NCBI GenBank assembly: GCA_030753015.1
Contig: JASMDC010000059.1
Coordinates: 1 to 17,367 of the forward strand
DNA: 17,367 bases
Origin: Candidatus Undinarchaeales archaeon
Lineage (GTDB): Archaea > SpSt-1190 > JASMDC01
Reading direction: 5' to 3'
A program made the translations under genes and the position numbers. Shown piece after piece: positions 3,130 to 17,260 of the stretch; position 1 is the first letter of the stretch; each line of letters starts with the position of its first letter. Under the pieces are notes generated by a model. It saw only the letters and a program-made list of their open reading frames with translations, was not told the origin of the DNA and did not search any database.

Positions 3130-3150
3130 CTGGCTCACCCGTGAACGATT

Positions 3151-3161
3151 CCCTTTTATGC
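3151..3161 (+). promoter_or_regulatory. Putative TATA box for surface-protein gene
   Basis: TTTTATG at 3154-3160, ~22 nt upstream of ATG 3183, consistent with a leaderless/short-leader archaeal transcript. Confidence 0.4.
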
Positions 3162-3182
3162 TTTGGGTGGCCTCCGCACCGT

Positions 3183-5975
3183 ATGGTAAGACGGAGGAGT
3201 GTCGCGGTCCTGGTGGCCTTCCTGACGCTCCTCTCACCGGTCACCGGCGAGGACGAACCGACGTTCGACTCGACCGTCTTTCTGGCATCGCTCCTCCCCG
3301 GGACGATCGACTGCCCTCCGGGTATGGTCCGCGTTGACGCCTTCTGGGGGAGCTTCTGTATCGATCAGTACGAGGCGTCCCGCGACGATCGTATGTGGAC
3401 AGTGTCCATCGTGGGGGGGAGGCCATGGACCAATATAACCTGGGAGCGGGCGCGGTTCGTATGCGGGCTCTCCGGAAAACGCTTGTGCACTGGCAGGGAA
3501 TGGCTCGCTGCCTGTGACCTCCAGGGACAGAAGTACGACCTCACGCAAGAGGGTACAGCGGAGCGCTTCGATTGCCACACGTACTGCTCGAACTGCACGC
3601 TGGAGGCGGCCGCGAACCACGATACGGGCGCACACCCCGAGTGTCGGTCTGGATCGAACGCCTACGACATGGTCGGCAACGTTTGGGAGTGGACCGAAGA
3701 GACGGTGCCCGATCATGGCTGGGCAGGTTCTGAGCGTTCCGTGGGCGATGTGCTCGGCAAGGACCCCAAGCGTTATGGGAACGATCATGTCTACCCTCCG
3801 GTCGATAATACCGGGAAGGGGAACCCGGTCCGGCGTGGCGGCTCGTGGAGCACCATCTCCTTCCAGGGGGCCGAGCGGGCCGGATGCTTCTCGCTACATT
3901 TCGCGAACAGCGGGCCTGACGTGCGCACCGGCTACCGGTGCTGTTACGGCTTCGATCCGAGCCCGCTCCCCACGGGGACGCTCGCCGATGCATTAGAGGA
4001 TCGTAACAGCCGCTATCTGGAGGGCATGCGCCAGGGTATCGACCTCAGCCATGAAAAGCGGTTCCAGGAAGCACTGGTCGCCTTCGAGGACGCCCGCGCC
4101 ATCTCGCCAGCGAGCCCCGAGGCCAATAACGGCCGGGCGGTGGCGCTGGCCGGACTGGAACGTCTGGACGCGGCCATCGTAGTGGAGGACAGCGTCCTGG
4201 ACAACGATCCCGACGATACCTACGCGCTCGCCAACAAGGGCGTGTTCCTTATCCGTGCGAAACGATACGAAGAGGCCATCAACACCTACGACCACCTCCT
4301 CGAGCTCGTCCAGGGAGATGAGCGGGCAATCGGTAACTATGCGTACGCTCTCACCGCCATGCTCGCCGAGGCCACTGCAACACCTTCGCAAGTCCCTTCC
4401 CCGGAACCGCCTGCTCCCACACCCACCGCTGAGCCTACGCCGATCTCCGAGCCCACACCGACCGCCGAGCCTTCGGCCACGCCGACCGTGGAAGTGGTCG
4501 GTCCGTCACTCAAACCCTGTCTGGGGCACCGCATCCAATGCGAGGGGAAGTGCATTGATATCACGAGCGATCCCCGGAACTGCGGTGCGTGCGGAATATC
4601 ATGCATCGTCCCCAACGCCGCAGTGGGATGCTCGGGCGGCGTCTGTTCCCTCATCGACTGCATGCCCGGGTACGAAAGCTGTGACCTGCGTCGGAATACA
4701 GGGTGCGAGACCTTCGTTCGAACTGATCCTGGGAACTGTGGGGGATGCAGGAGGCGATGTCCTTTGGGGGAGGCGTGCGTTGACGGGGCCTGCATGGTGC
4801 TCACGGCAGAGCCCCTGGTGTCCGTGATCCCCCCGGAGGAGGTGTGCGAGGACGACAATCCCTGCACACGGAACGCGGGTGCGGACGGCGCCTGCGAGAT
4901 AGTCGCCGTCGACTGCGGCCACTCGTGCGGAGAGGGTCGCGTCTGCAACGGTGACACCGAGTGCGTCCCGCTCAGCGATATCGATGGGCCCTGTGCCTGT
5001 GCTGCCATGTGCACCCCGGGCCTGACCTGCACTTCCAGTGGCTGCAGCCGGGTCATCTCCTCGTGCGGTGATGGGCGGTGCGAGCCGGGCGAGTGCTCGG
5101 AATGCCCTGGCGACTGCTCCCCGACCCATTGCGCAGGGAACGGCCGGTGCGATGCCACGGTCGGCGAGACATGTGCCACCGCCCGCACCGACTGCCTCTG
5201 TGCCCAGGGCCTGGTCTGCAAGCCCGAGATCGAGGGCGCCCTGAAGAACGGGTGCTACGAGGTGGTGTGCGGTGATGGGAGCTGTGATTTCCCCGAGACC
5301 GCCGTCGGCTGCTGCCATGACTGTCCAAGCCCCGAGGGTTACGGTTGTCACGATGAATCCCAGATGTGCATGCTCACGTGCGGCAACGGTCAATGTAACG
5401 AGTGGGAATGCAATATCTGCACACAGGACTGCACCTGTGACGATTGTCGATGCTCTTTCACGATGAGCATAATCAAGAACATCGAACTGAAGGTGAACGA
5501 GAACCACAAGCATCTGTTCTTCATTCGCAACACGGGCATCATCCAGGACACCTACCATGTCGGTGTCACCTCCCCGATCGATACTGGCTGGCTCGGCGAG
5601 CGTACGGTGCAGCTCGAGCCGGGGGAGGACGAGGAGTTCACCCTCCATATCCGCCCCGAAGAGGCGGGGACATTCAGGATAACCGTTCACGTTGAGGCAC
5701 TGGGCACACACGATACGAAGGAGCTCTCGACCGTGCTCACCGTCTCCCGCCAGGGGGCCATGGACGAGGTGCTGGGCGGGCTGGCCCCGATCTTTGGGCT
5801 CAAGGACCTAGCAGAGATCATCATCATCACAGTCTCGCTCGTGTTCGCGGGCCGACGCTACCTGCAGTACCGACGGAACCTCGATGCGATGTCCCGACAG
5901 ACCCATGCGCTCGAACGGATGCGGGCAGAGACCCTGCATGGTGGAGGCCAAGCATATGCCAACAGACGCTATTGA
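3183..5975 (+). CDS. Large secreted, C-terminally membrane-anchored multidomain protein: FGE-sulfatase (CLec-fold) domain, TPR repeats, Pro/Thr linker, Cys-rich repeats, Ig/CARDB-like domain
   Basis: Start reassigned to ATG 3183 giving signal peptide MVRRRSVAVLVAFLTLLSPVTG. FGE-type motifs CPPGMV..FCIDQYEAS, KRLCTGREW, YDMVGNVWEW, RGGSW...GYRCC (~3312-3947); TPR-like helices (~4020-4360); PTPTAEP linker; Cys-rich 4518-5453; IRNTG...DTY beta-sandwich; TM LAEIIIITVSLVFAG followed by basic RRY. Confidence 0.85.
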   Translation: MVRRRSVAVLVAFLTLLSPVTGEDEPTFDSTVFLASLLPGTIDCPPGMVRVDAFWGSFCIDQYEASRDDRMWTVSIVGGRPWTNITWERARFVCGLSGKRLCTGREWLAACDLQGQKYDLTQEGTAERFDCHTYCSNCTLEAAANHDTGAHPECRSGSNAYDMVGNVWEWTEETVPDHGWAGSERSVGDVLGKDPKRYGNDHVYPPVDNTGKGNPVRRGGSWSTISFQGAERAGCFSLHFANSGPDVRTGYRCCYGFDPSPLPTGTLADALEDRNSRYLEGMRQGIDLSHEKRFQEALVAFEDARAISPASPEANNGRAVALAGLERLDAAIVVEDSVLDNDPDDTYALANKGVFLIRAKRYEEAINTYDHLLELVQGDERAIGNYAYALTAMLAEATATPSQVPSPEPPAPTPTAEPTPISEPTPTAEPSATPTVEVVGPSLKPCLGHRIQCEGKCIDITSDPRNCGACGISCIVPNAAVGCSGGVCSLIDCMPGYESCDLRRNTGCETFVRTDPGNCGGCRRRCPLGEACVDGACMVLTAEPLVSVIPPEEVCEDDNPCTRNAGADGACEIVAVDCGHSCGEGRVCNGDTECVPLSDIDGPCACAAMCTPGLTCTSSGCSRVISSCGDGRCEPGECSECPGDCSPTHCAGNGRCDATVGETCATARTDCLCAQGLVCKPEIEGALKNGCYEVVCGDGSCDFPETAVGCCHDCPSPEGYGCHDESQMCMLTCGNGQCNEWECNICTQDCTCDDCRCSFTMSIIKNIELKVNENHKHLFFIRNTGIIQDTYHVGVTSPIDTGWLGERTVQLEPGEDEEFTLHIRPEEAGTFRITVHVEALGTHDTKELSTVLTVSRQGAMDEVLGGLAPIFGLKDLAEIIIITVSLVFAGRRYLQYRRNLDAMSRQTHALERMRAETLHGGGQAYANRRY
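4416..4472 (+). repeat. Intragenic direct repeat encoding PTPTAEP linker (2 copies, 36-nt period)
   Basis: cccacacccaccgctgagcct (4416-4436) and cccacaccgaccgccgagcct (4452-4472). Confidence 0.7.
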
Positions 5976-11375: not shown

Positions 11376-12746
11376 CTAGGCAGACCGCTTGAACCGGGAC
11401 TGGAAGTGGCGGAGGATGGGCGCCTCGTACTCGAAGTCAAGGCCCTGGACATCGTGTCGCCGCCCCCACACACCAGCGACGGTGTCGGCGATGTAGTCCA
11501 TGTGCTCCTGGGTGTACACGCGGCGGGGGATGGTAAGACGCGTGAGCTCCAGGGCCGGGTGGATGTTCTCTCCGGTGTCCGGGTCACGTCCTGCGAGCAG
11601 GGTACCGATCTCTACCGAGCGCACACCGCCCTCGAGGTATAGCTCCACGCACAGGGTGTGGGCGGGGAACATGTCCTGAGTGATGTGGGGGAAGAACGTC
11701 TTGGCGTCGATGTAGATGGCATGCCCTCCAACGGGCTTGACGATTGGAACCCCTGTCGCCTCCAGACGCCGGCCCAGGTACTCGATCTGGCCGATACGGT
11801 AGGCGAGATACGGCTCCTCGATGGCCTCGTACAGCCCGCGCGCCATCGCCTCGATGTCCCGGCCGTTCATGCCGCCGTAGGTCGGGAAGCCCTCGAACAG
11901 CACACAGATGGGGCACAGCTTCTGGTACAGTTCCTCGTCGCGCAGGGCCAGGAAACCGCCCATGTTGACGATGGCGTCCTTCTTCGCGCTCATCAGCACG
12001 CCGTCGACGCACGAGAATATGTTGCGCACGATATCGCGGATGGACTTGTTCTTCTGCTCGGGCTCCCTGGTCTTGATGAACCAGGCGTTCTCGGCGTACC
12101 TGGCTGCGTCGATGTAGAGCAGGACCTTGTGCTCGTGGCAGATGGCCGACACGTCACGGATGTTCTGGAGGGATACCGGCTGGCCGCCGCCCGAGTTGTT
12201 CGTGATGGTGATCAGAACGTAGGCGACGTTCAACGGGTCCGGCTCGATGACGGCGCGCAGCTTGTCCAAGTCCAGATCCCCCTTGAAGGGGAGCTCGGCC
12301 GCGGGGTCGTGGATGGCATCGATGGTGCAGTCCACGGCCCGTCCGCCGAGGACCTCGATGTGGGCCTTTGTGGTGTCGAAGTGGATGTTGCCCGGGACGG
12401 TCTGGCCTTCCTTGAGCAGGACGCGGTTGAGCACCTGCTCGGCACCCCTCCCCTGGTGGCAGGGGATGACGAACTCGAACCCCATGATGTCCTTGACGGT
12501 GTTACGGAGGTTGTGGAAGTTGCGCGAGCCCGCGTACGACTCGTCGCCCAGCATGATGCCCGCCCACTGGTTGTCGCTCATGGCACCCGTACCGCTGTCG
12601 GTGAGAAGATCGATGAACACGTCCTTGGAGTTGAGGAGGAAGGGATTGAAACCGGCCTCGACGATCGCCCGCTCGCGCTCCTCCCGAGGTATGAGCTTGA
12701 TGGGCTCGACCATCTTGATCTTGTAGGGCGGTATCATCCGTTCCAT
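11376..12746 (-). CDS. tnaA: Tryptophanase (PLP-dependent beta-eliminating lyase)
   Basis: Start reassigned to ATG 12746. PYKIKMVE, FIDLLTDSGT, GDESYAGS, HQGRGAE, MSAKKD (PLP Lys), GFPTYGG. Tryptophanase-type residues VEIG (tyrosine phenol-lyase has MERG) and LRHF (TPL has LRFF). Confidence 0.9.
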   Translation of the reverse strand: MERMIPPYKIKMVEPIKLIPREERERAIVEAGFNPFLLNSKDVFIDLLTDSGTGAMSDNQWAGIMLGDESYAGSRNFHNLRNTVKDIMGFEFVIPCHQGRGAEQVLNRVLLKEGQTVPGNIHFDTTKAHIEVLGGRAVDCTIDAIHDPAAELPFKGDLDLDKLRAVIEPDPLNVAYVLITITNNSGGGQPVSLQNIRDVSAICHEHKVLLYIDAARYAENAWFIKTREPEQKNKSIRDIVRNIFSCVDGVLMSAKKDAIVNMGGFLALRDEELYQKLCPICVLFEGFPTYGGMNGRDIEAMARGLYEAIEEPYLAYRIGQIEYLGRRLEATGVPIVKPVGGHAIYIDAKTFFPHITQDMFPAHTLCVELYLEGGVRSVEIGTLLAGRDPDTGENIHPALELTRLTIPRRVYTQEHMDYIADTVAGVWGRRHDVQGLDFEYEAPILRHFQSRFKRSA

Positions 12747-12768
12747 GCAGCCAGCCTGCGGGAGTAGA

Positions 12769-12775
12769 CTTAAAA
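12769..12775 (-). promoter_or_regulatory. Putative TATA box of tnaA
   Basis: TTTTAAG on the minus strand, 23-29 nt upstream of ATG 12746 (leaderless geometry). Confidence 0.5.
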
Positions 12776-12831
12776 GAGGACCCGGGAGGCGTGCCACCAT
12801 GGGACAGGGCCGTGTTGTGGCCTGCAGGTTC

Positions 12832-12846: not shown

Positions 12847-12878
12847 CGCCTGTCCTGCCGAGATTGTCGGACAGGGCG

Positions 12879-13700
12879 ATGGATTCTATCGTGAGCAACG
12901 AGTACTTGGACCTCGACCTCGAGGTCTATCAACCAGACGACCTCGTGCCCGGCCAGGACTCGTGCAACCTCGCCTTCGACGTCCATATCGACGGAAAGAG
13001 GGTCGACAAGGTCAAGTACGACCTGGAGTTCCATGCACCGTCCTACGGCGACATCCCGCCCGAGATCAAGTTCTCCGAGGACTTCTCCAACGGCCAGACA
13101 CGCTACCGGGGCAAGGAGGTCAAGGCATTCATCGGCACGTCCCTTGTCCAGGGGACCAAGGAGTTCCTCAAGGCCGGGTTCCTCGCAGGCGGCGCCTTCC
13201 TCGGCCTGGCAGCGGGCCCGTACGGTCCACTGGCCGCGGTAGGGCTGGGTGCTGCGGGCGCCACGGTCGGACGGTACCTCGGTGACAGGCTCGGCGACTA
13301 CGTGGAGTCCAAGCAGACGTACAAGTTCTTCCAGGAGCAGGACTGGGGCAAGCGCTCCTTTGGCACCAGCCGCGCCACCATGGACCGCCTCGAAGAGGAC
13401 TATCTCAACCTGCCCGACGAGATCGCGCCGTCCGCCGAGTACAACGAACGCATCCTGCACGCCAAGCTCAAGCTCAACCCGGACGCCGGCCCCGTCGTCG
13501 ACAACACCTTCGTTAGCGTCCGCTACGACGTGCGCCACGACAAGGACCACTACATGCCCTTCAGCCTGACGGTGAAGTACAAGCCCAAGGGCGAGAAGCG
13601 GCAGGAGAAGGTGGTCCGCGGGTACGCTGTGTTCCACGACGATGTGTTCTCGCGTGTGGAGCTGCTTAAGGAAGGGGAGCCCGGGGCAGAGGACTGCTAG
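12879..13700 (+). CDS. Hypothetical protein with central glycine-zipper hydrophobic hairpin
   Basis: Strong C/G third-position codon bias; AGFLAGGAFLGLAAGPYGPLAAVGLGAAGATVGRYLG (GxxxG repeats) between two polar, beta-rich-looking regions; no signal peptide. Confidence 0.75.
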   Translation: MDSIVSNEYLDLDLEVYQPDDLVPGQDSCNLAFDVHIDGKRVDKVKYDLEFHAPSYGDIPPEIKFSEDFSNGQTRYRGKEVKAFIGTSLVQGTKEFLKAGFLAGGAFLGLAAGPYGPLAAVGLGAAGATVGRYLGDRLGDYVESKQTYKFFQEQDWGKRSFGTSRATMDRLEEDYLNLPDEIAPSAEYNERILHAKLKLNPDAGPVVDNTFVSVRYDVRHDKDHYMPFSLTVKYKPKGEKRQEKVVRGYAVFHDDVFSRVELLKEGEPGAEDC

Positions 13701-13772: not shown

Positions 13773-13808
13773 GAAAAGGTGGTGAAGGGGGCCCGCAGAC
13801 CCCCTTCA
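13773..13808 (-). terminator. Hairpin terminator between convergent genes
   Basis: Perfect 9-bp stem TGAAGGGGG (13783-13791) / CCCCCTTCA (13800-13808), 8-nt loop, followed on the minus strand by CCACCTTTTCT; 13 nt after the DUF35 stop. Confidence 0.65.
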
Positions 13809-13821
13809 ATCCATTATAGGT

Positions 13822-14184
13822 TCACCCCTTGGGCCTGAACCTGAAGCCCTCTATGGTCTCCTCGCCGAGCATGCGCAGCATGCCCCAGTCGGGGACGAGC
13901 TTCATGCCCATCTCGACATCTTCCGGCTTAGCAAGGACCTGTCCGGTGGCACGTACGGGTTCGTCGAAACCGTCGAAGGCCACGATGCCGAGCACCAGAG
14001 GCCTGGTCTTCACGCCTGTAGGCACTGCCGTGAGCACCGTGTAGGTGACAAGGCTCGCCTCGGCGCCCAGCGGCACCTCCTTGAAATCCCGCGCACCGCA
14101 CTTCGTGCACAAGTCGTGGGCGGGGTACATCACCTTGCCGCACGCAGTACACTGCATGCCCATCATCTTTCGTTCCTCGTCCAT
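13822..14184 (-). CDS. DUF35-family Zn-ribbon + OB-fold protein (thiolase partner)
   Basis: CTACGKVMYPAHDLCTKCG followed by LVTYTV..AVP.G...PLVLGIVAF...GQV...VEMGMKL...GFRFRP. Start reassigned to ATG 14184 (SD GAGGTGA at 14196-14190, 5-nt spacer). Confidence 0.92.
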   Translation of the reverse strand: MDEERKMMGMQCTACGKVMYPAHDLCTKCGARDFKEVPLGAEASLVTYTVLTAVPTGVKTRPLVLGIVAFDGFDEPVRATGQVLAKPEDVEMGMKLVPDWGMLRMLGEETIEGFRFRPKG

Positions 14185-14185
14185 C

Positions 14186-15364
14186 TCAGTCACCTCGCTC
14201 CAGGATGTGGGCGACGACGTTGTTGCCGAACCCGCCGAAGTTCACCGTGAAAGCGCGCTGGGCTCCGCTGACCTGCCGCCTACCGGCATCGCCGCGAAGC
14301 TGCCACGTGCACTCAACGAGCTGGGCCGCACCTGTCGCGCCGACAGGGTGGCCTCTTGCTTTGAGCCCGCCGGACGGATTGATCGGGAGCTTCCCGCCGA
14401 TCTGGGTGACGCCCTCGCGCAGCGCTGTCGCGCACTTCCCGGGCTCGAAGAAGCCGGCGTTCTCGCTCTCGGCGAACTCCAGGATGGTGAACGCGTCGTG
14501 CAGCTCCAGGAAGTCGATGTCCTTGCGCTCGACGCCCGCCATGGCAAACGCCCTGTCGGCAGCAATCTGCACGCTCTTGAGCACCAGCGGATCTGGCCGC
14601 TCGTGCACGGCATGCAGGTCGGTGCCCTGCCCCACGCCCGCGATGCGTACCGGGGTGTCGCAGAGCTCTTTTGCCTTCTCCAGCGGACAGAGGATGAACG
14701 CGGCAGCACCGTCGCTCACCGGGCACATGTCGTAGAGCCGGAGCGGATCAGCGATGACCGGGTTGTTGAGCTTTGCCTCACGCGAGAGCAGGATGCCCTC
14801 AAGGGCGATCTTCTGGTGGATGTGGGCGTAGGGGTTGAGCATACCGTTGGCATGGTTCTTCACGGCGACGTTGGCCAAATCCTCGCTGGTGATGCCGTAT
14901 TTGTCCATGTACAATCGTGCGAACATCCCCGCCAGCGACGGCAGGGTGACGCCGTGGATGTACTCGGCCTTCGGATGGCTCATCATGGCGACGAAGTCGG
15001 TGATGGTCCCGCCGGGAGCGACGCGCATGCGCTCGCCTCCGGCCACCAGCACGCAATCCGAGTAGCCCGATGCCACCTCGAAGAACCCCAGCTTGGCGGC
15101 GTTCTGGCCTGACGCTGGACCGTTCTCGATGGCCACGGCACTGGTCTTTCCAAGGAGCCCCAGCCGGTCGATGACGGCGGACGCGAGGGCGGTCTGGCGG
15201 TTGATTGCGCCGGCGCCCATGTTTGCCACGTACACCGAGTCGATGCCCGGGTTCCCGCAGTCGTCCATGGCAGCAAGACAGGCCTTGGCGATCATCTCGT
15301 CCAGTTCGTACGAGAGGCGCCCGAACTTGGTCATGCCAACGCCGACGATGGCGACGTCGCGCAC
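14186..15364 (-). CDS. Thiolase-fold protein (SCP2/archaeal type) lacking both catalytic cysteines
   Basis: VAIVGVGMTKFG, AVKNHANG..NPYAH, PLRLYDMCPVSDGAAA, ELHDAFT, PINPSGGLKARGHPVGATG; nucleophile site reads ENGPASG (Pro83, codon CCA at 15118-15116). Confidence 0.9.
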   Translation of the reverse strand: MRDVAIVGVGMTKFGRLSYELDEMIAKACLAAMDDCGNPGIDSVYVANMGAGAINRQTALASAVIDRLGLLGKTSAVAIENGPASGQNAAKLGFFEVASGYSDCVLVAGGERMRVAPGGTITDFVAMMSHPKAEYIHGVTLPSLAGMFARLYMDKYGITSEDLANVAVKNHANGMLNPYAHIHQKIALEGILLSREAKLNNPVIADPLRLYDMCPVSDGAAAFILCPLEKAKELCDTPVRIAGVGQGTDLHAVHERPDPLVLKSVQIAADRAFAMAGVERKDIDFLELHDAFTILEFAESENAGFFEPGKCATALREGVTQIGGKLPINPSGGLKARGHPVGATGAAQLVECTWQLRGDAGRRQVSGAQRAFTVNFGGFGNNVVAHILERGD

Positions 15365-15367
15365 GGT

Positions 15368-16042
15368 CTATCCTTCCCCTGTGACGCGGCGCCTGATCTC
15401 TTCTGGCGGCGGTACGATGATCTCTTTGTTGGCCTCGATGATCTCGTCGGGCACGGGTCGCTCGCCAAAGAGCTTCTCGGGCTTCATGAAGGTCTCGAAG
15501 TTCTCTTTAGTGAGCACCCAGGAGTCGACACCGCCCAGCTCGTGATGGACCTCGTTCTTGGGCTCGAGCCTCAGCTCCTCCATCCAGCGCCGGAACCCGA
15601 TCGGGCTCTCGGCCACGACGAGGACCTCCTCCTGGTCCATCATGAAGTGGTACTCCATCTTGGCCGGGAACAGGTGCGCCCCCACGCGCAGGCCCCGCTT
15701 CAGGGCCATGGTGTGGTAGCTCATCCCCGTCTTGTCGTCCACGATCCGGCCGTTGACGATCCCGACGATCTCGCCGTCGATGAGGCCCACCAGGCAGTAC
15801 TCGTCGCGAACGCGGTAACGGTACCAGCCCAGCAGCTCGGCGTACACTCGTGATGCCACGATGTCGTAGTAGTCCTTGGCAACGGTGGTCAGCGGGCGGA
15901 CCGCATCGAGGAGCTTGGGCACCTCCTCGCGTTCTGCCTGCCGGATCAGCAGCTTCTCCCCGCTCACAAGCGTGATAACCTTGGGCGGGTAGGGTTTCAT
16001 CTCCCTTTCAGGAGGTCTCAGAAGGTCCTCGTCTCCAACCAT
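15368..16042 (-). CDS. GNAT-like N-acetyltransferase fold protein
   Basis: Start reassigned to ATG 16042 (GGGGGA SD upstream). LLIRQAEREEVPKLL, CLVGLIDGEIVGIVNG (beta hairpin), HTMALKRGLRVGAHL (motif A-like), VAESPIGFRRW (motif B-like). 3 nt from thiolase start. Confidence 0.65.
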   Translation of the reverse strand: MVGDEDLLRPPEREMKPYPPKVITLVSGEKLLIRQAEREEVPKLLDAVRPLTTVAKDYYDIVASRVYAELLGWYRYRVRDEYCLVGLIDGEIVGIVNGRIVDDKTGMSYHTMALKRGLRVGAHLFPAKMEYHFMMDQEEVLVVAESPIGFRRWMEELRLEPKNEVHHELGGVDSWVLTKENFETFMKPEKLFGERPVPDEIIEANKEIIVPPPEEIRRRVTGEG

Positions 16043-16149
16043 GATTAGTCCCCCATAGTCTGGGTGTCGGCGGATAGGGACCAAATGCATTTAATCCTTG
16101 TGATGCGTCCGCTCGTAACGTCGTCACCGTGCAGTGGTCGCACAACAAT

Positions 16150-16177
16150 CTATTAATAGGACAAATAGTGCTAAATA
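16150..16177. promoter_or_regulatory. AT-rich divergent promoter region with perfect palindrome CTATTAATAG
   Basis: CTATTAATAG at 16150-16159, then AAATAGTGCTAAATA, between the divergent GNAT operon and transglutaminase-like gene. Confidence 0.45.
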
Positions 16178-16222
16178 CCGCCACGGTTCGTAGAGAATCG
16201 TGTGTTCAGAGGAAAGGGGACC

Positions 16223-17260
16223 ATGTACGGGATTGTGGACGTTGATCTGGAGACGGAGGGGTACGCCGACGCGCTCGGTGCCGAGACGCGGCACGAGGCC
16301 GACGACCTCGTTGCGAACAAGCTCTCGCAGTACGCCATCTCTGCTGCCACGCTCATCGGTGTATCGTACGGCCTCGACGTCTTCACCTCGTTCTCGATCG
16401 CCCGCCTGACCAACGCGCGACAGGACCCCAACGAGTACCTCTCGTCGGAAGGACAGGAACGCGTCGCAAGCGTCATCGACACCGAGGAGGTCTGGAACGA
16501 CATCTCCGAGAACCCGGACCAGTACTCGGGACAGGACATCGTCGAAAGGCTCCATGCAAAGGTGATGATACACCTTGATTACGACGACTCCTTTGCTGAC
16601 ACCGGCATCGATCCGGCGGTCGACGACGGTTCTGGCATCTGCTTCGACTTCTCGGGCATGACCTACTCGGCCCTGCTCAAGCTCGCGGCCGACCACCCCG
16701 AGATCGCCGAGCAGGCACAGGACGTGCGCTGGGTGTTCGGGGCCTCCGGCGAGGAGAACATCGGGCATGCCTGGTTGCACGTGCGCGGGGAGGACGGCGT
16801 CTGGCACAACTACGATGCCACCGTGGACTACGTGGAGAACGGCATGGGCAACGCCGACATCGTTCACCAGTACCCGCCCGTGGACATGGGCAAGTACATC
16901 GACATGGGCAGCGTCCAGCAGGCGGCCGACGGTACGTACGATCATGACATGGTGTGGGAGAACATCCTCCTCCCCAAGATGTCCGCCGGCGAGCAGCTGC
17001 TGAACATGTACGAGATGAAGACCGGCAACGACATCCCCAACAACGTCGAGCAGTACCTGCCCGAGACGTTCATCCTCGTGGCCGGCACCACCGGTATCAC
17101 CACCGGTGTCAAGTGGACCTTTGGGAAGGTCTGGGAGTGGATCAAGGGCCGCCGTGGCGGCGGTGGCGGAGATGACGGGGACGACGACAGTGGTGGAGAG
17201 GATCTCGAGCGCTACCTCGAGGAGATGGAGCGCAAGCACCGGCAGAAGGACGGGGAGTAG
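16223..17260 (+). CDS. Acidic membrane-anchored transglutaminase-like (Cys-His-Asp) protein
   Basis: Start reassigned to ATG 16223 (GGAAAGGGG upstream). GICFDFS (Cys at 16640), GHAWLHV (His at 16766), WHNYDAT (Asp at 16814) match the transglutaminase-like GxCxD / HAW / W..D.T pattern; hydrophobic segments near both termini; Gly/Asp-rich tail. Confidence 0.8.
   Translation: MYGIVDVDLETEGYADALGAETRHEADDLVANKLSQYAISAATLIGVSYGLDVFTSFSIARLTNARQDPNEYLSSEGQERVASVIDTEEVWNDISENPDQYSGQDIVERLHAKVMIHLDYDDSFADTGIDPAVDDGSGICFDFSGMTYSALLKLAADHPEIAEQAQDVRWVFGASGEENIGHAWLHVRGEDGVWHNYDATVDYVENGMGNADIVHQYPPVDMGKYIDMGSVQQAADGTYDHDMVWENILLPKMSAGEQLLNMYEMKTGNDIPNNVEQYLPETFILVAGTTGITTGVKWTFGKVWEWIKGRRGGGGGDDGDDDSGGEDLERYLEEMERKHRQKDGE

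Follow-up and report, generated by a model that had tools for sequence, protein, structure and literature searches.

A conserved gene trio encoding a GNAT-fold protein, a thiolase-fold protein without the catalytic cysteine and a DUF35 protein: a candidate acyl-CoA enzyme complex

The stretch of DNA considered here, a contig of 17,367 nucleotides from an Undinarchaeales archaeon (JASMDC010000059.1, contig C72 of its genome, taken at full length and called the window below), carries three closely packed genes for a GNAT-fold protein, a thiolase-fold protein with proline in the place of the catalytic cysteine, and a DUF35 protein. The three products very likely form one complex, and the trio probably belongs to an acyl-urea pathway for N-heterocycles. 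More tentatively, it may be the coenzyme A (CoA)-dependent end module of an anaerobic acyl-urea pathway, likely one for pyrimidines, in which a malonyl-type fragment is turned into acetyl-CoA and CO2. No characterised thiolase/DUF35 complex that was found in print combines a GNAT partner with a cysteine-less thiolase, as the first-pass annotation of the window had supposed, and the literature search found no paper on a GNAT-thiolase-DUF35 trio. The archaeal genome comprises 3.85 Mb with 62% G+C, a completeness of 98.9% and a contamination of 5.0%. The genes of the trio are as follows:

15368-16042, minus strand: GNAT-fold gene, open reading frame (ORF) of 224 amino acids
14186-15364, minus strand: thiolase-fold gene, ORF of 392 amino acids, GTG start
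13822-14184, minus strand: DUF35 gene, ORF of 120 amino acids

The tight packing described at first reading, with gaps of 3 and 1 nt on the minus strand, is seen directly in the sequence. The TAG stop of the GNAT gene is followed after 3 nt by the GTG of the thiolase gene, and the TGA of the latter after 1 nt by the ATG of the DUF35 gene. Purine-rich stretches that resemble Shine-Dalgarno sites (GGGGGA, GGGGAAGGA and GAGGTGA) lie 4-17 nt 5' of all three starts. The start of the GNAT gene was placed at the ATG at 16042, not at the beginning of the longer ORF from 16090, in agreement with the alignment of homologues, and the exact 224-residue protein is already present in a database record.

The thiolase-fold and DUF35 subunits

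The product of the second gene matches Thiolase_N (E 6e-27) and Thiolase_C_1 (E 3e-42) of Pfam, and its best NCBIfam matches are archaeal-type thiolases, every one under its cut-off. It is 42% identical to the genome's own canonical thiolase, which is encoded on contig C67. When the two are aligned, Pro83 in IENGPASG falls on the nucleophilic Cys of EAACASG, and Ala291 in HDAF on the second Cys (HDCF). H289 of HDAF, His339 of the GHP motif and NFGGFG are retained, and an insertion of seven residues at positions 193-199 is absent from the canonical protein. The [VI]ENGPASG and LHDAF motifs are kept in 69/69 thiolases of the family, the window included; ENGPASG, HDAF, GHPxGATG and NFGGFGNN are invariant across phyla, and the mean column identity is 71%. 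The lack of the catalytic Cys reported at first reading is therefore a property of the whole set of 69, and, as far as its sequence tells, the subunit cannot form an acyl-enzyme because the nucleophilic Cys is replaced by Pro.

Among solved structures, the best match is 7YVY, in which ACASG is kept, yet HDAF is present. The second-best, 4YZO, is described as a 'putative acyl-CoA acyltransferase' and has NTSGSG at the nucleophile position, being likewise Cys-less; no functional paper on it was found. The further matches include the archaeal thiolase complex 6ESQ (E 2e-62), 6OK1 (E 7e-28) and PhlC (E 1e-16).

The first-pass annotation had proposed a thiolase-fold lyase or aldolase, and the steroid side-chain retro-aldolases Ltp2-ChsH2 and Sal-Shy (6OK1; PMC12329534) indeed share with the trio a Cys-less thiolase fold and a DUF35 domain. 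Ltp2 and Sal, however, rely on a catalytic Tyr in the motif YDHF or YDCY (PMC12329534), whereas the family described here has LHDAF throughout, so an enzyme of the Ltp2/Sal type is not upheld. The DUF35 part differs as well: in the steroid systems it is fused to a MaoC hydratase, while that of the trio stands alone, with no steroid genes nearby. The protein of 120 residues contains a zinc ribbon and an OB (oligonucleotide/oligosaccharide-binding) fold and has no MaoC part. It passes the models zf-ChsH2 (35.7, cut-off 23.2) and OB_ChsH2_C (32.1, cut-off 27.1), and its C4 zinc ribbon, formed by the invariant C12, C15, C26 and C29, precedes the OB fold. Neither equivalog model of the benzoylsuccinyl-CoA thiolase BbsAB was passed: BbsB gave 180 (cut-off 750) and BbsA 31.7 (cut-off 250).

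The GNAT-fold subunit and the predicted complex

The product of the first gene has no Pfam family of its own; its match to PF00583 stays below threshold (14.9 bits against a cut-off of 20.7), and no NCBIfam GNAT model matches it. Its AlphaFold2 (AF2) model has a predicted local distance difference test (pLDDT) score of 88, and in this model the protein clearly has the GNAT fold. GNATs head the Foldseek matches (E about 1e-6; probability 1.00 at E 7e-7), and all 50 matches listed by VIA are GNAT-type acetyltransferases (Z 12.2-10.0, 121-179 aligned residues). The GNAT-like character ascribed to this gene at the outset is thus confirmed by two independent structure searches of the model.

The invariant motifs of the subunit are SYHT (108-111), RGLRVG (116-121), KMEYH (128-132), AESPIGFRRWM (144-154) and HELGG (167-171), with a mean column identity of 67%. 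In canonical GNATs the pyrophosphate loop after strand 4 has the form Q/R-x-x-G-x-G/A. Here it reads R116-G-L-R119-V-G121, with an invariant Arg where the middle Gly is expected. The GNAT-fold malonyl-CoA decarboxylases (MCD and the CurA loading domain) use a His plus a Ser/Thr pair; S108, H110, T111 and H167 are invariant polar residues in the present alignment, and no MCD or CurA GNAT domain is found among the matches listed by Foldseek and VIA.

The complex was modelled by co-folding the thiolase, DUF35 and GNAT subunits at 1:1:1, with an alignment for each and with the GNAT subunit as the scored partner. Values of 0.76, 0.70 and 0.75 (median 0.75) were obtained for ipSAE, the interaction prediction score from aligned errors, against 0.00 in all three controls. 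In the calibration, 58 of 80 solved complexes and 2 of 110 mismatched pairs attained the mark of 0.75. The runs have at least 89% of their contacts in common, and the pLDDT of the partner is at least 81. On the thiolase side the predicted interface covers residues 184-201, including the family-specific insertion; on the GNAT side it comprises residues 23-28 (strand 1), 117-119, 122-123 and 189-193. Loop 117-123 sits, in the AF2 model, between strand 4 and helix 3, and it is at the loop between these elements that GNATs bind the CoA pyrophosphate.

Since there is no solved GNAT-on-thiolase complex, recall of a known structure is unlikely to lie behind this result. Docking of the GNAT subunit on the thiolase subunit is supported by the models, and the proposal of a three-component complex made in the first-pass annotation gains from the same comparison (0.75 for GNAT-thiolase, 0.00 for the best control). 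The accompanying proposal that DUF35 bridges the other two subunits gains no such support; the modelled interface of the GNAT subunit is with the thiolase subunit itself.

A plain N-acyltransferase, acting on an amine intermediate or on a protein while the thiolase and DUF35 subunits are inert and hold CoA or shape the site, is an improbable description of the trio. The GNAT fold and a thiolase without nucleophile would suit such an enzyme, and inert HMGS-like subunits are documented in PhlACB and MucABC (PMC12960953). However, the invariance of the thiolase active-site motifs across phyla goes beyond the usual needs of a scaffold, the pyrophosphate loop is altered to R-G-x-R-x-G, and no recurring amine-producing gene lies next to the trio.

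Conservation and distribution

Relatives of the GNAT subunit were found in 2,496 database clusters (E <= 0.001) among 2,797 candidates, and the best 120 of the 2,496 are 58-87% identical to the window protein. With one genome taken per species, at least 579 species loci encode such a relative; the locus counts given from here on refer to the best 80 of them. A thiolase gene follows directly downstream of the GNAT gene in 76/80 and a DUF35 gene comes next in 72/80, which links the GNAT gene to ENGPASG-type thiolases and DUF35 in the way that the first-pass annotation anticipated. The carriers belong to Bacillota, Chloroflexota, Bipolaricaulota, Eisenbacteria, Zixibacteria, Thermoproteota and others. 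Four loci lack the thiolase: L019, where the stretch ends at the GNAT stop, L026, and the sister rows L035 and L042. L026 comes from the same Thermoproteota genome as L096, so that this genome holds a solo GNAT gene and, on another contig, a complete trio; in the genome of L042 no ENGPASG-type thiolase was found. A search for longer forms gave four proteins, three of which enter the thiolase sequence, contain garbled Arg/Pro-rich stretches and, being to all appearance frameshifted read-throughs, are not counted as GNAT-thiolase fusions.

The GNAT tree follows phyla. The window protein stands on a long branch beside another archaeal row (support 81, with a long-branch warning), and a clear donor lineage is not apparent in the tree. 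Of 17 genomes from the phylum of the window, two have the GNAT gene, a number too small for statistics; these two belong to the window's genus. The other 15 genomes measure 0.6-1.2 Mb, and those of this genus, the sole trio-bearing one there, 3.6-3.8 Mb. Because gene order, motifs and zinc-binding Cys residues are conserved and the GNAT tree follows phyla, the trio is, on comparative sequence evidence, an old and strongly constrained module, not a decaying paralogue.

A redundant or degenerate duplicate of the mevalonate set of thiolase, HMG-CoA synthase (HMG, 3-hydroxy-3-methylglutaryl) and DUF35 would account for two features, namely that the thiolase has its nearest named relatives among archaeal acetoacetyl-CoA thiolases and that DUF35 is common to both. 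It is nevertheless the least probable of the explanations considered. Contig C67 carries the canonical HMG-CoA synthase-thiolase-DUF35 row in intact form, the synthase matching HMG_CoA_syn_Arc with 555 bits, and for this reason the trio is regarded as a separate system; as observed at first reading, no HMG-CoA synthase adjoins the trio. Moreover, Pro stands at the nucleophile position in every family member compared, the partner is a GNAT and not an HMG-CoA synthase, and purifying selection is strong in bacteria that do not need mevalonate.

The genome also holds a third thiolase-like gene (G000 contig C73:88682-90461, locus L003 with flanks), whose product of 425 residues has GGGATGG and is also Cys-less. 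A DUF35 gene of its own follows it, and it lies within a beta-oxidation cluster with acyl-CoA dehydrogenase, electron transfer flavoprotein (ETF), enoyl-CoA hydratase and a classic thiolase.

Metagenomes of 12 studies, marine and seawater ones, contain the stretch that carries the trio. Parts of the thiolase gene, its junction with the GNAT gene and the 5' end of the latter are represented by contigs from four metatranscriptome libraries (three studies); the junction contig (15309-15478) stems from a related strain with six differences. Positions 13804-14339, with the 3' end of the thiolase gene and the whole DUF35 gene, are covered by no contig from an RNA library, which is not evidence of absence.

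Gene neighbourhoods and the link to acyl-urea degradation

The assignment to an acyl-urea pathway is drawn from the genes around the trio. At least one of FdrA/AllF, AllG, AllH, a cyclase-family amidohydrolase, a molybdenum (Mo) hydroxylase, an NCS2 permease and PucR is present in 43/80 loci, which come from Bacillota, Chloroflexota, Eisenbacteria and unclassified bacteria:

FdrA/AllF: 29/80 loci
AllG: 22/80 loci
AllH: 16/80 loci
Cyclase-family amidohydrolase: 23/80 loci
Three-subunit Mo hydroxylase: 24/80 loci
NCS2 permease: 15/80 loci
PucR regulator: 12/80 loci

A typical Clostridium row reads PucR-AllH-FdrA-AllG-cyclase-GNAT-thiolase-DUF35-permease, followed by the flavin (FAD), iron-sulfur (FeS) and molybdenum-cofactor (MoCo) subunits of the hydroxylase. 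A carbamate kinase equivalog occurs in three loci (397 bits, cut-off 358). The Moorella locus contains a uracil-permease equivalog (643, cut-off 477) and, beside it, a cytosine-deaminase-like gene that scores just below its cut-off (423 against 438). At the level of whole genomes, AllG is present in 49 of 56 GNAT-bearing genomes against 12 of 301 sampled Clostridia, a comparison uncorrected for kinship, and in 1 of 14 control genomes. The Clostridia sample (300 scored for the GNAT gene) has the GNAT gene in a single genome and was for this reason used as the background for AllG. In the archaeon itself, AllH-FdrA-AllG is found on contig C28 and a cyclase-FAD-FeS-MoCo row on C54, and a carbamate kinase gene is truncated by the start of contig C47; the products of these modules are 42-55% identical to Clostridium magnum proteins.

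In E. coli, AllFGH converts oxalurate and phosphate into carbamoyl phosphate and oxamate, and oxamate undergoes no further metabolism there (PMC11326118). An alternative lies in a purine or allantoin branch, in which AllFGH makes oxamate and the oxalyl fragment would be activated or broken down by the trio (from oxamate to oxalyl-CoA and beyond). The alternative draws on the fact that AllFGH is proven for oxalurate and oxamate only (PMC11326118); on PucR in 12/80 loci and purine-nucleoside phosphorylase in three; and on the Mo subunit, which scores best against XdhA, and the CoA-transferases, which score best or near-best against CoA:oxalate transferase, all under the cut-offs. Against it, the best-typed transporter is the uracil permease, next to the cytosine-deaminase-like gene, and the oxamate route of E. 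coli works without the trio. Decarboxylation of an oxalyl thioester, moreover, requires thiamine-type chemistry and not the enolate-stabilising pocket of a thiolase. An oxalyl substrate is accordingly judged unlikely, about on a par with the plain N-acyltransferase.

The tryptophanase-family gene 1 kb downstream on the same strand had led the first-pass annotation to think of amino-acid fermentation. Service of the trio in tryptophan or amino-acid fermentation with this tnaA is very improbable, as a hairpin and an opposite-strand ORF (12864-13700) intervene and a tnaA homologue is present in 0/80 loci.

Further information comes from clusters with CoA-transferases and amidases. In four Clostridia loci without the trio (L103, L104, L105 and L107), a family III CoA-transferase gene lies between AllG and the cyclase of an orthologous AllH-FdrA-AllG-cyclase cluster. 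L108 and L109 represent a second type of cluster, which has in addition a short-amide CN-hydrolase and a xanthine-type permease, all matches being below curated cut-offs. The CoA-transferase was considered as a non-orthologous replacement of the trio, and this idea was dropped, as L052 and L082 (2/80) hold both. In each of these Chloroflexota loci (L052:6001-12155 and L082:553-4927), one row contains the trio together with FdrA, a CN-hydrolase of the short-amide kind and a family III CoA-transferase of the dicarboxylate type. An amide-to-acid-to-acyl-CoA branch for a small dicarboxylate thus appears, from gene content, to sit beside the trio and not simply to replace it. The sharing of a row by CN-hydrolase, CoA-transferase and trio suggests that the pathway runs through a small dicarboxylic monoamide and that the task of the trio lies in the chemistry of CoA thioesters.

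Proposed function

In the pyrimidine scheme that we tentatively prefer, a molybdenum hydroxylase would first oxidise uracil to barbiturate, and the cyclase-family amidohydrolase would open the barbiturate ring to give ureidomalonate. An AllFGH-type enzyme would then use phosphate to split ureidomalonate into carbamoyl phosphate and malonamate, with the former yielding ATP via carbamate kinase. In the fourth step, the trio would convert the malonyl fragment into acetyl-CoA and CO2, together with NH3 if the amide is the substrate. Taken as a claim of its own, the formation of acetyl-CoA from a malonyl-type fragment by the trio is rather doubtful.

Within the trio, the GNAT subunit would shift the malonyl group between the amide nitrogen and the sulfur of CoA, and the Cys-less thiolase site would decarboxylate the malonyl thioester. 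The interface would retain CoA, so that, as in the thiolase/HMG-CoA synthase complex, the second step would pull an unfavourable first one. In thiolases, two His residues of the HDAF/GHP type stabilise the enolate of the thioester. Decarboxylation of a malonyl thioester would be the best-suited chemistry because no acyl-enzyme is possible but H289 and H339 are kept. A Cys-less thiolase-like protein of T. brucei is a weak malonyl-CoA decarboxylase, according to a study cited in PMC12329534.

A bolder version, unlikely but somewhat less so than the oxalyl and N-acyltransferase alternatives, is that of a 'reverse GNAT' machine, in which the acyl group of malonamate would be moved from nitrogen to CoA and the transfer paid for by decarboxylation in the Cys-free pocket across a shared CoA site. 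If this were true, then together with the carbamoyl phosphate two ATP-equivalents per pyrimidine ring would be available to anaerobes, this archaeon included, and the trio would represent a widespread, undescribed energy-conserving pathway and a new kind of enzyme coupling.

The trio could instead be a biosynthetic former of C-C bonds, in which an enolate arises from malonyl-CoA, the GNAT subunit delivers the acyl group and acetoacetyl-CoA or a similar product is reached by a Cys-free route. Both folds bind acyl-CoA, and acyl transfer by GNATs proceeds with no covalent intermediate; C-acylations are known from the relatives PhlACB and MucABC. However, the neighbours of the trio are catabolic genes, transporters and regulators, none of them biosynthetic, and a canonical thiolase/HMG-CoA synthase set is already present in the genome. 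This option is held to be still less probable than an oxalyl substrate.

Several observations weigh against the malonyl end module and must be set beside it. The choice of substrate is guesswork based on the genes nearby, and we infer the substrate together with the direction of the reaction and the roles of the subunits. As to the neighbourhoods themselves, 37/80 loci have no listed pathway gene within 6 kb, and loci of the Bipolaricaulota type have housekeeping neighbours; 7 of the 56 trio genomes lack AllG, many carriers being incomplete metagenome-assembled genomes, and 11 of the 12 AllG-positive sampled Clostridia are without the trio. The association of AllG with the GNAT gene, as said, carries no correction for kinship. 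The trio of this archaeon is unlinked to the partner modules, which lie on other contigs, and its genome, at the completeness given above, has no match to an NCS2 nucleobase permease. Purine metabolism is signalled by the PucR regulators and by the purine-nucleoside phosphorylase equivalog, and the Mo subunits, scoring best on XdhA, fall under every xanthine-dehydrogenase cut-off. The CoA-transferase and amidase beside the trio in two loci mean that the role of the trio may be confined to decarboxylation, with the amide not among its substrates. On the structural side, the occurrence of HDAF in the Cys-bearing 7YVY means that HDAF alone is not a lost residue, and the co-fold was run with custom alignments at 1:1:1, unlike the tool's calibration. 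Finally, the RNA-library contigs are a record of presence in the libraries; DNA can contaminate these, and transcription is unproven.

Comparison with known systems

The closest parallel is the archaeal thiolase/HMG-CoA synthase/DUF35 complex of the mevalonate pathway, reported in 2018 and outlined in PMC12960953. It resembles the trio in having three co-transcribed subunits with an archaeal-type thiolase and DUF35, and in the sharing of a CoA site at an interface, proposed for the trio, by which an unfavourable step is pulled. The mevalonate complex has the Cys in xACASG and a thiolase-fold HMG-CoA synthase, whereas the trio has Pro and a GNAT-fold partner. The context of the trio is catabolic, and its third subunit is predicted to contact a family-specific insertion of the thiolase.

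The Friedel-Crafts C-acetyltransferases PhlACB (5M3K) and MucABC/SmaATase (9VBO) are, like the trio, repurposed tripartite thiolase/DUF35 complexes with rewired sites (PMC12960953). They keep the catalytic Cys (Cys88/Cys87), which is acetylated, in the ACAT-like subunit and have an inert HMGS-like third subunit (PMC12960953), in contrast to the Pro and the GNAT partner of the trio.

For the pathway, E. coli AllFGH with carbamate kinase is comparable in that AllF/G/H, the cyclase and carbamate kinase are the commonest neighbours of the trio, and in that phosphate is used to cleave an acyl-urea, with carbamoyl phosphate and an amide as the products (PMC11326118). The E. coli system has no trio, and the trio-linked clusters add the Mo hydroxylase, the cyclase-type amidohydrolase and pyrimidine-type transporters.

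The oxidative route of Rhodococcus and Nocardia leads from uracil through barbiturate and ureidomalonate to urea and malonate. It is similar to the scheme proposed here in the hydroxylation of uracil, the opening of the barbiturate ring and a malonyl-type end fragment. It differs in being aerobic, in using barbiturase (with the cyanuric-acid-hydrolase fold) and ureidomalonase, and in that no energy is conserved and no CoA is involved. The literature search found no anaerobic route through barbiturate and carbamoyl phosphate; the work found on barbiturase and ureidomalonase concerns aerobic or cyanuric-acid systems only.

Implications

The GNAT subunit, in spite of its 2,496 clusters and at least 579 species loci, has no family name, and no paper on it was found; its thiolase partner is routinely annotated as acetyl-CoA acetyltransferase although an acyl-enzyme appears impossible. 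Should the proposed function be correct, the last step of an oxygen-free breakdown of pyrimidines or other acyl-urea compounds would be filled, and the fate of the amide that AllFGH leaves in E. coli would be explained. The trio would then be a fourth, chemically different thiolase/DUF35 complex, with a non-thiolase partner and no nucleophile. Cultured carriers suitable for tests include Clostridium magnum, Neomoorella/Moorella and Anaerocolumna aminovalerica.

Regulatory features and flanking genes

Two further features border the trio:

13780-13813, minus strand: GC-rich hairpin followed by a TTTT run, 3' of the DUF35 stop; minimum free energy -24.1 kcal/mol, z -2.85
16043-16201, no strand assigned: divergent intergenic region of 159 nt, 5' of the GNAT gene, containing the AT-rich stretch TATTAATA

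The hairpin probably marks the end of the operon. Its stability agrees with the terminator called at first reading, and 3 of 200 shuffles fold equally well; the consensus terminator scan of the locus found none, the tail of the hairpin consisting of four T only. The divergent region presumably contains the promoter of the trio. A scan for sigma-70 promoters gave no sites, as expected for an archaeal host.

The genes that flank the trio, at 16202-17260 and 12864-13700, both on the plus strand, belong to no Pfam family, and both are covered by RNA-library contigs. The product of the former has a paralogue on contig C49, to which it is 47% identical. The gene at 11376-12800 (minus strand) encodes a beta-eliminating lyase that scores 687 bits with the tryptophanase subfamily model, above the cut-off of 285, and stays below the equivalog cut-offs of TnaA and tyrosine phenol-lyase alike. 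At 3141-5975 (plus strand), a protein of 944 residues is encoded with an FGE-sulfatase-like domain, tetratricopeptide (TPR) repeats, long Cys-rich repeats and a probable C-terminal membrane anchor. Elsewhere in the window lie genes for aIF2-alpha, a PAC2 protein and a Ski2-like helicase.

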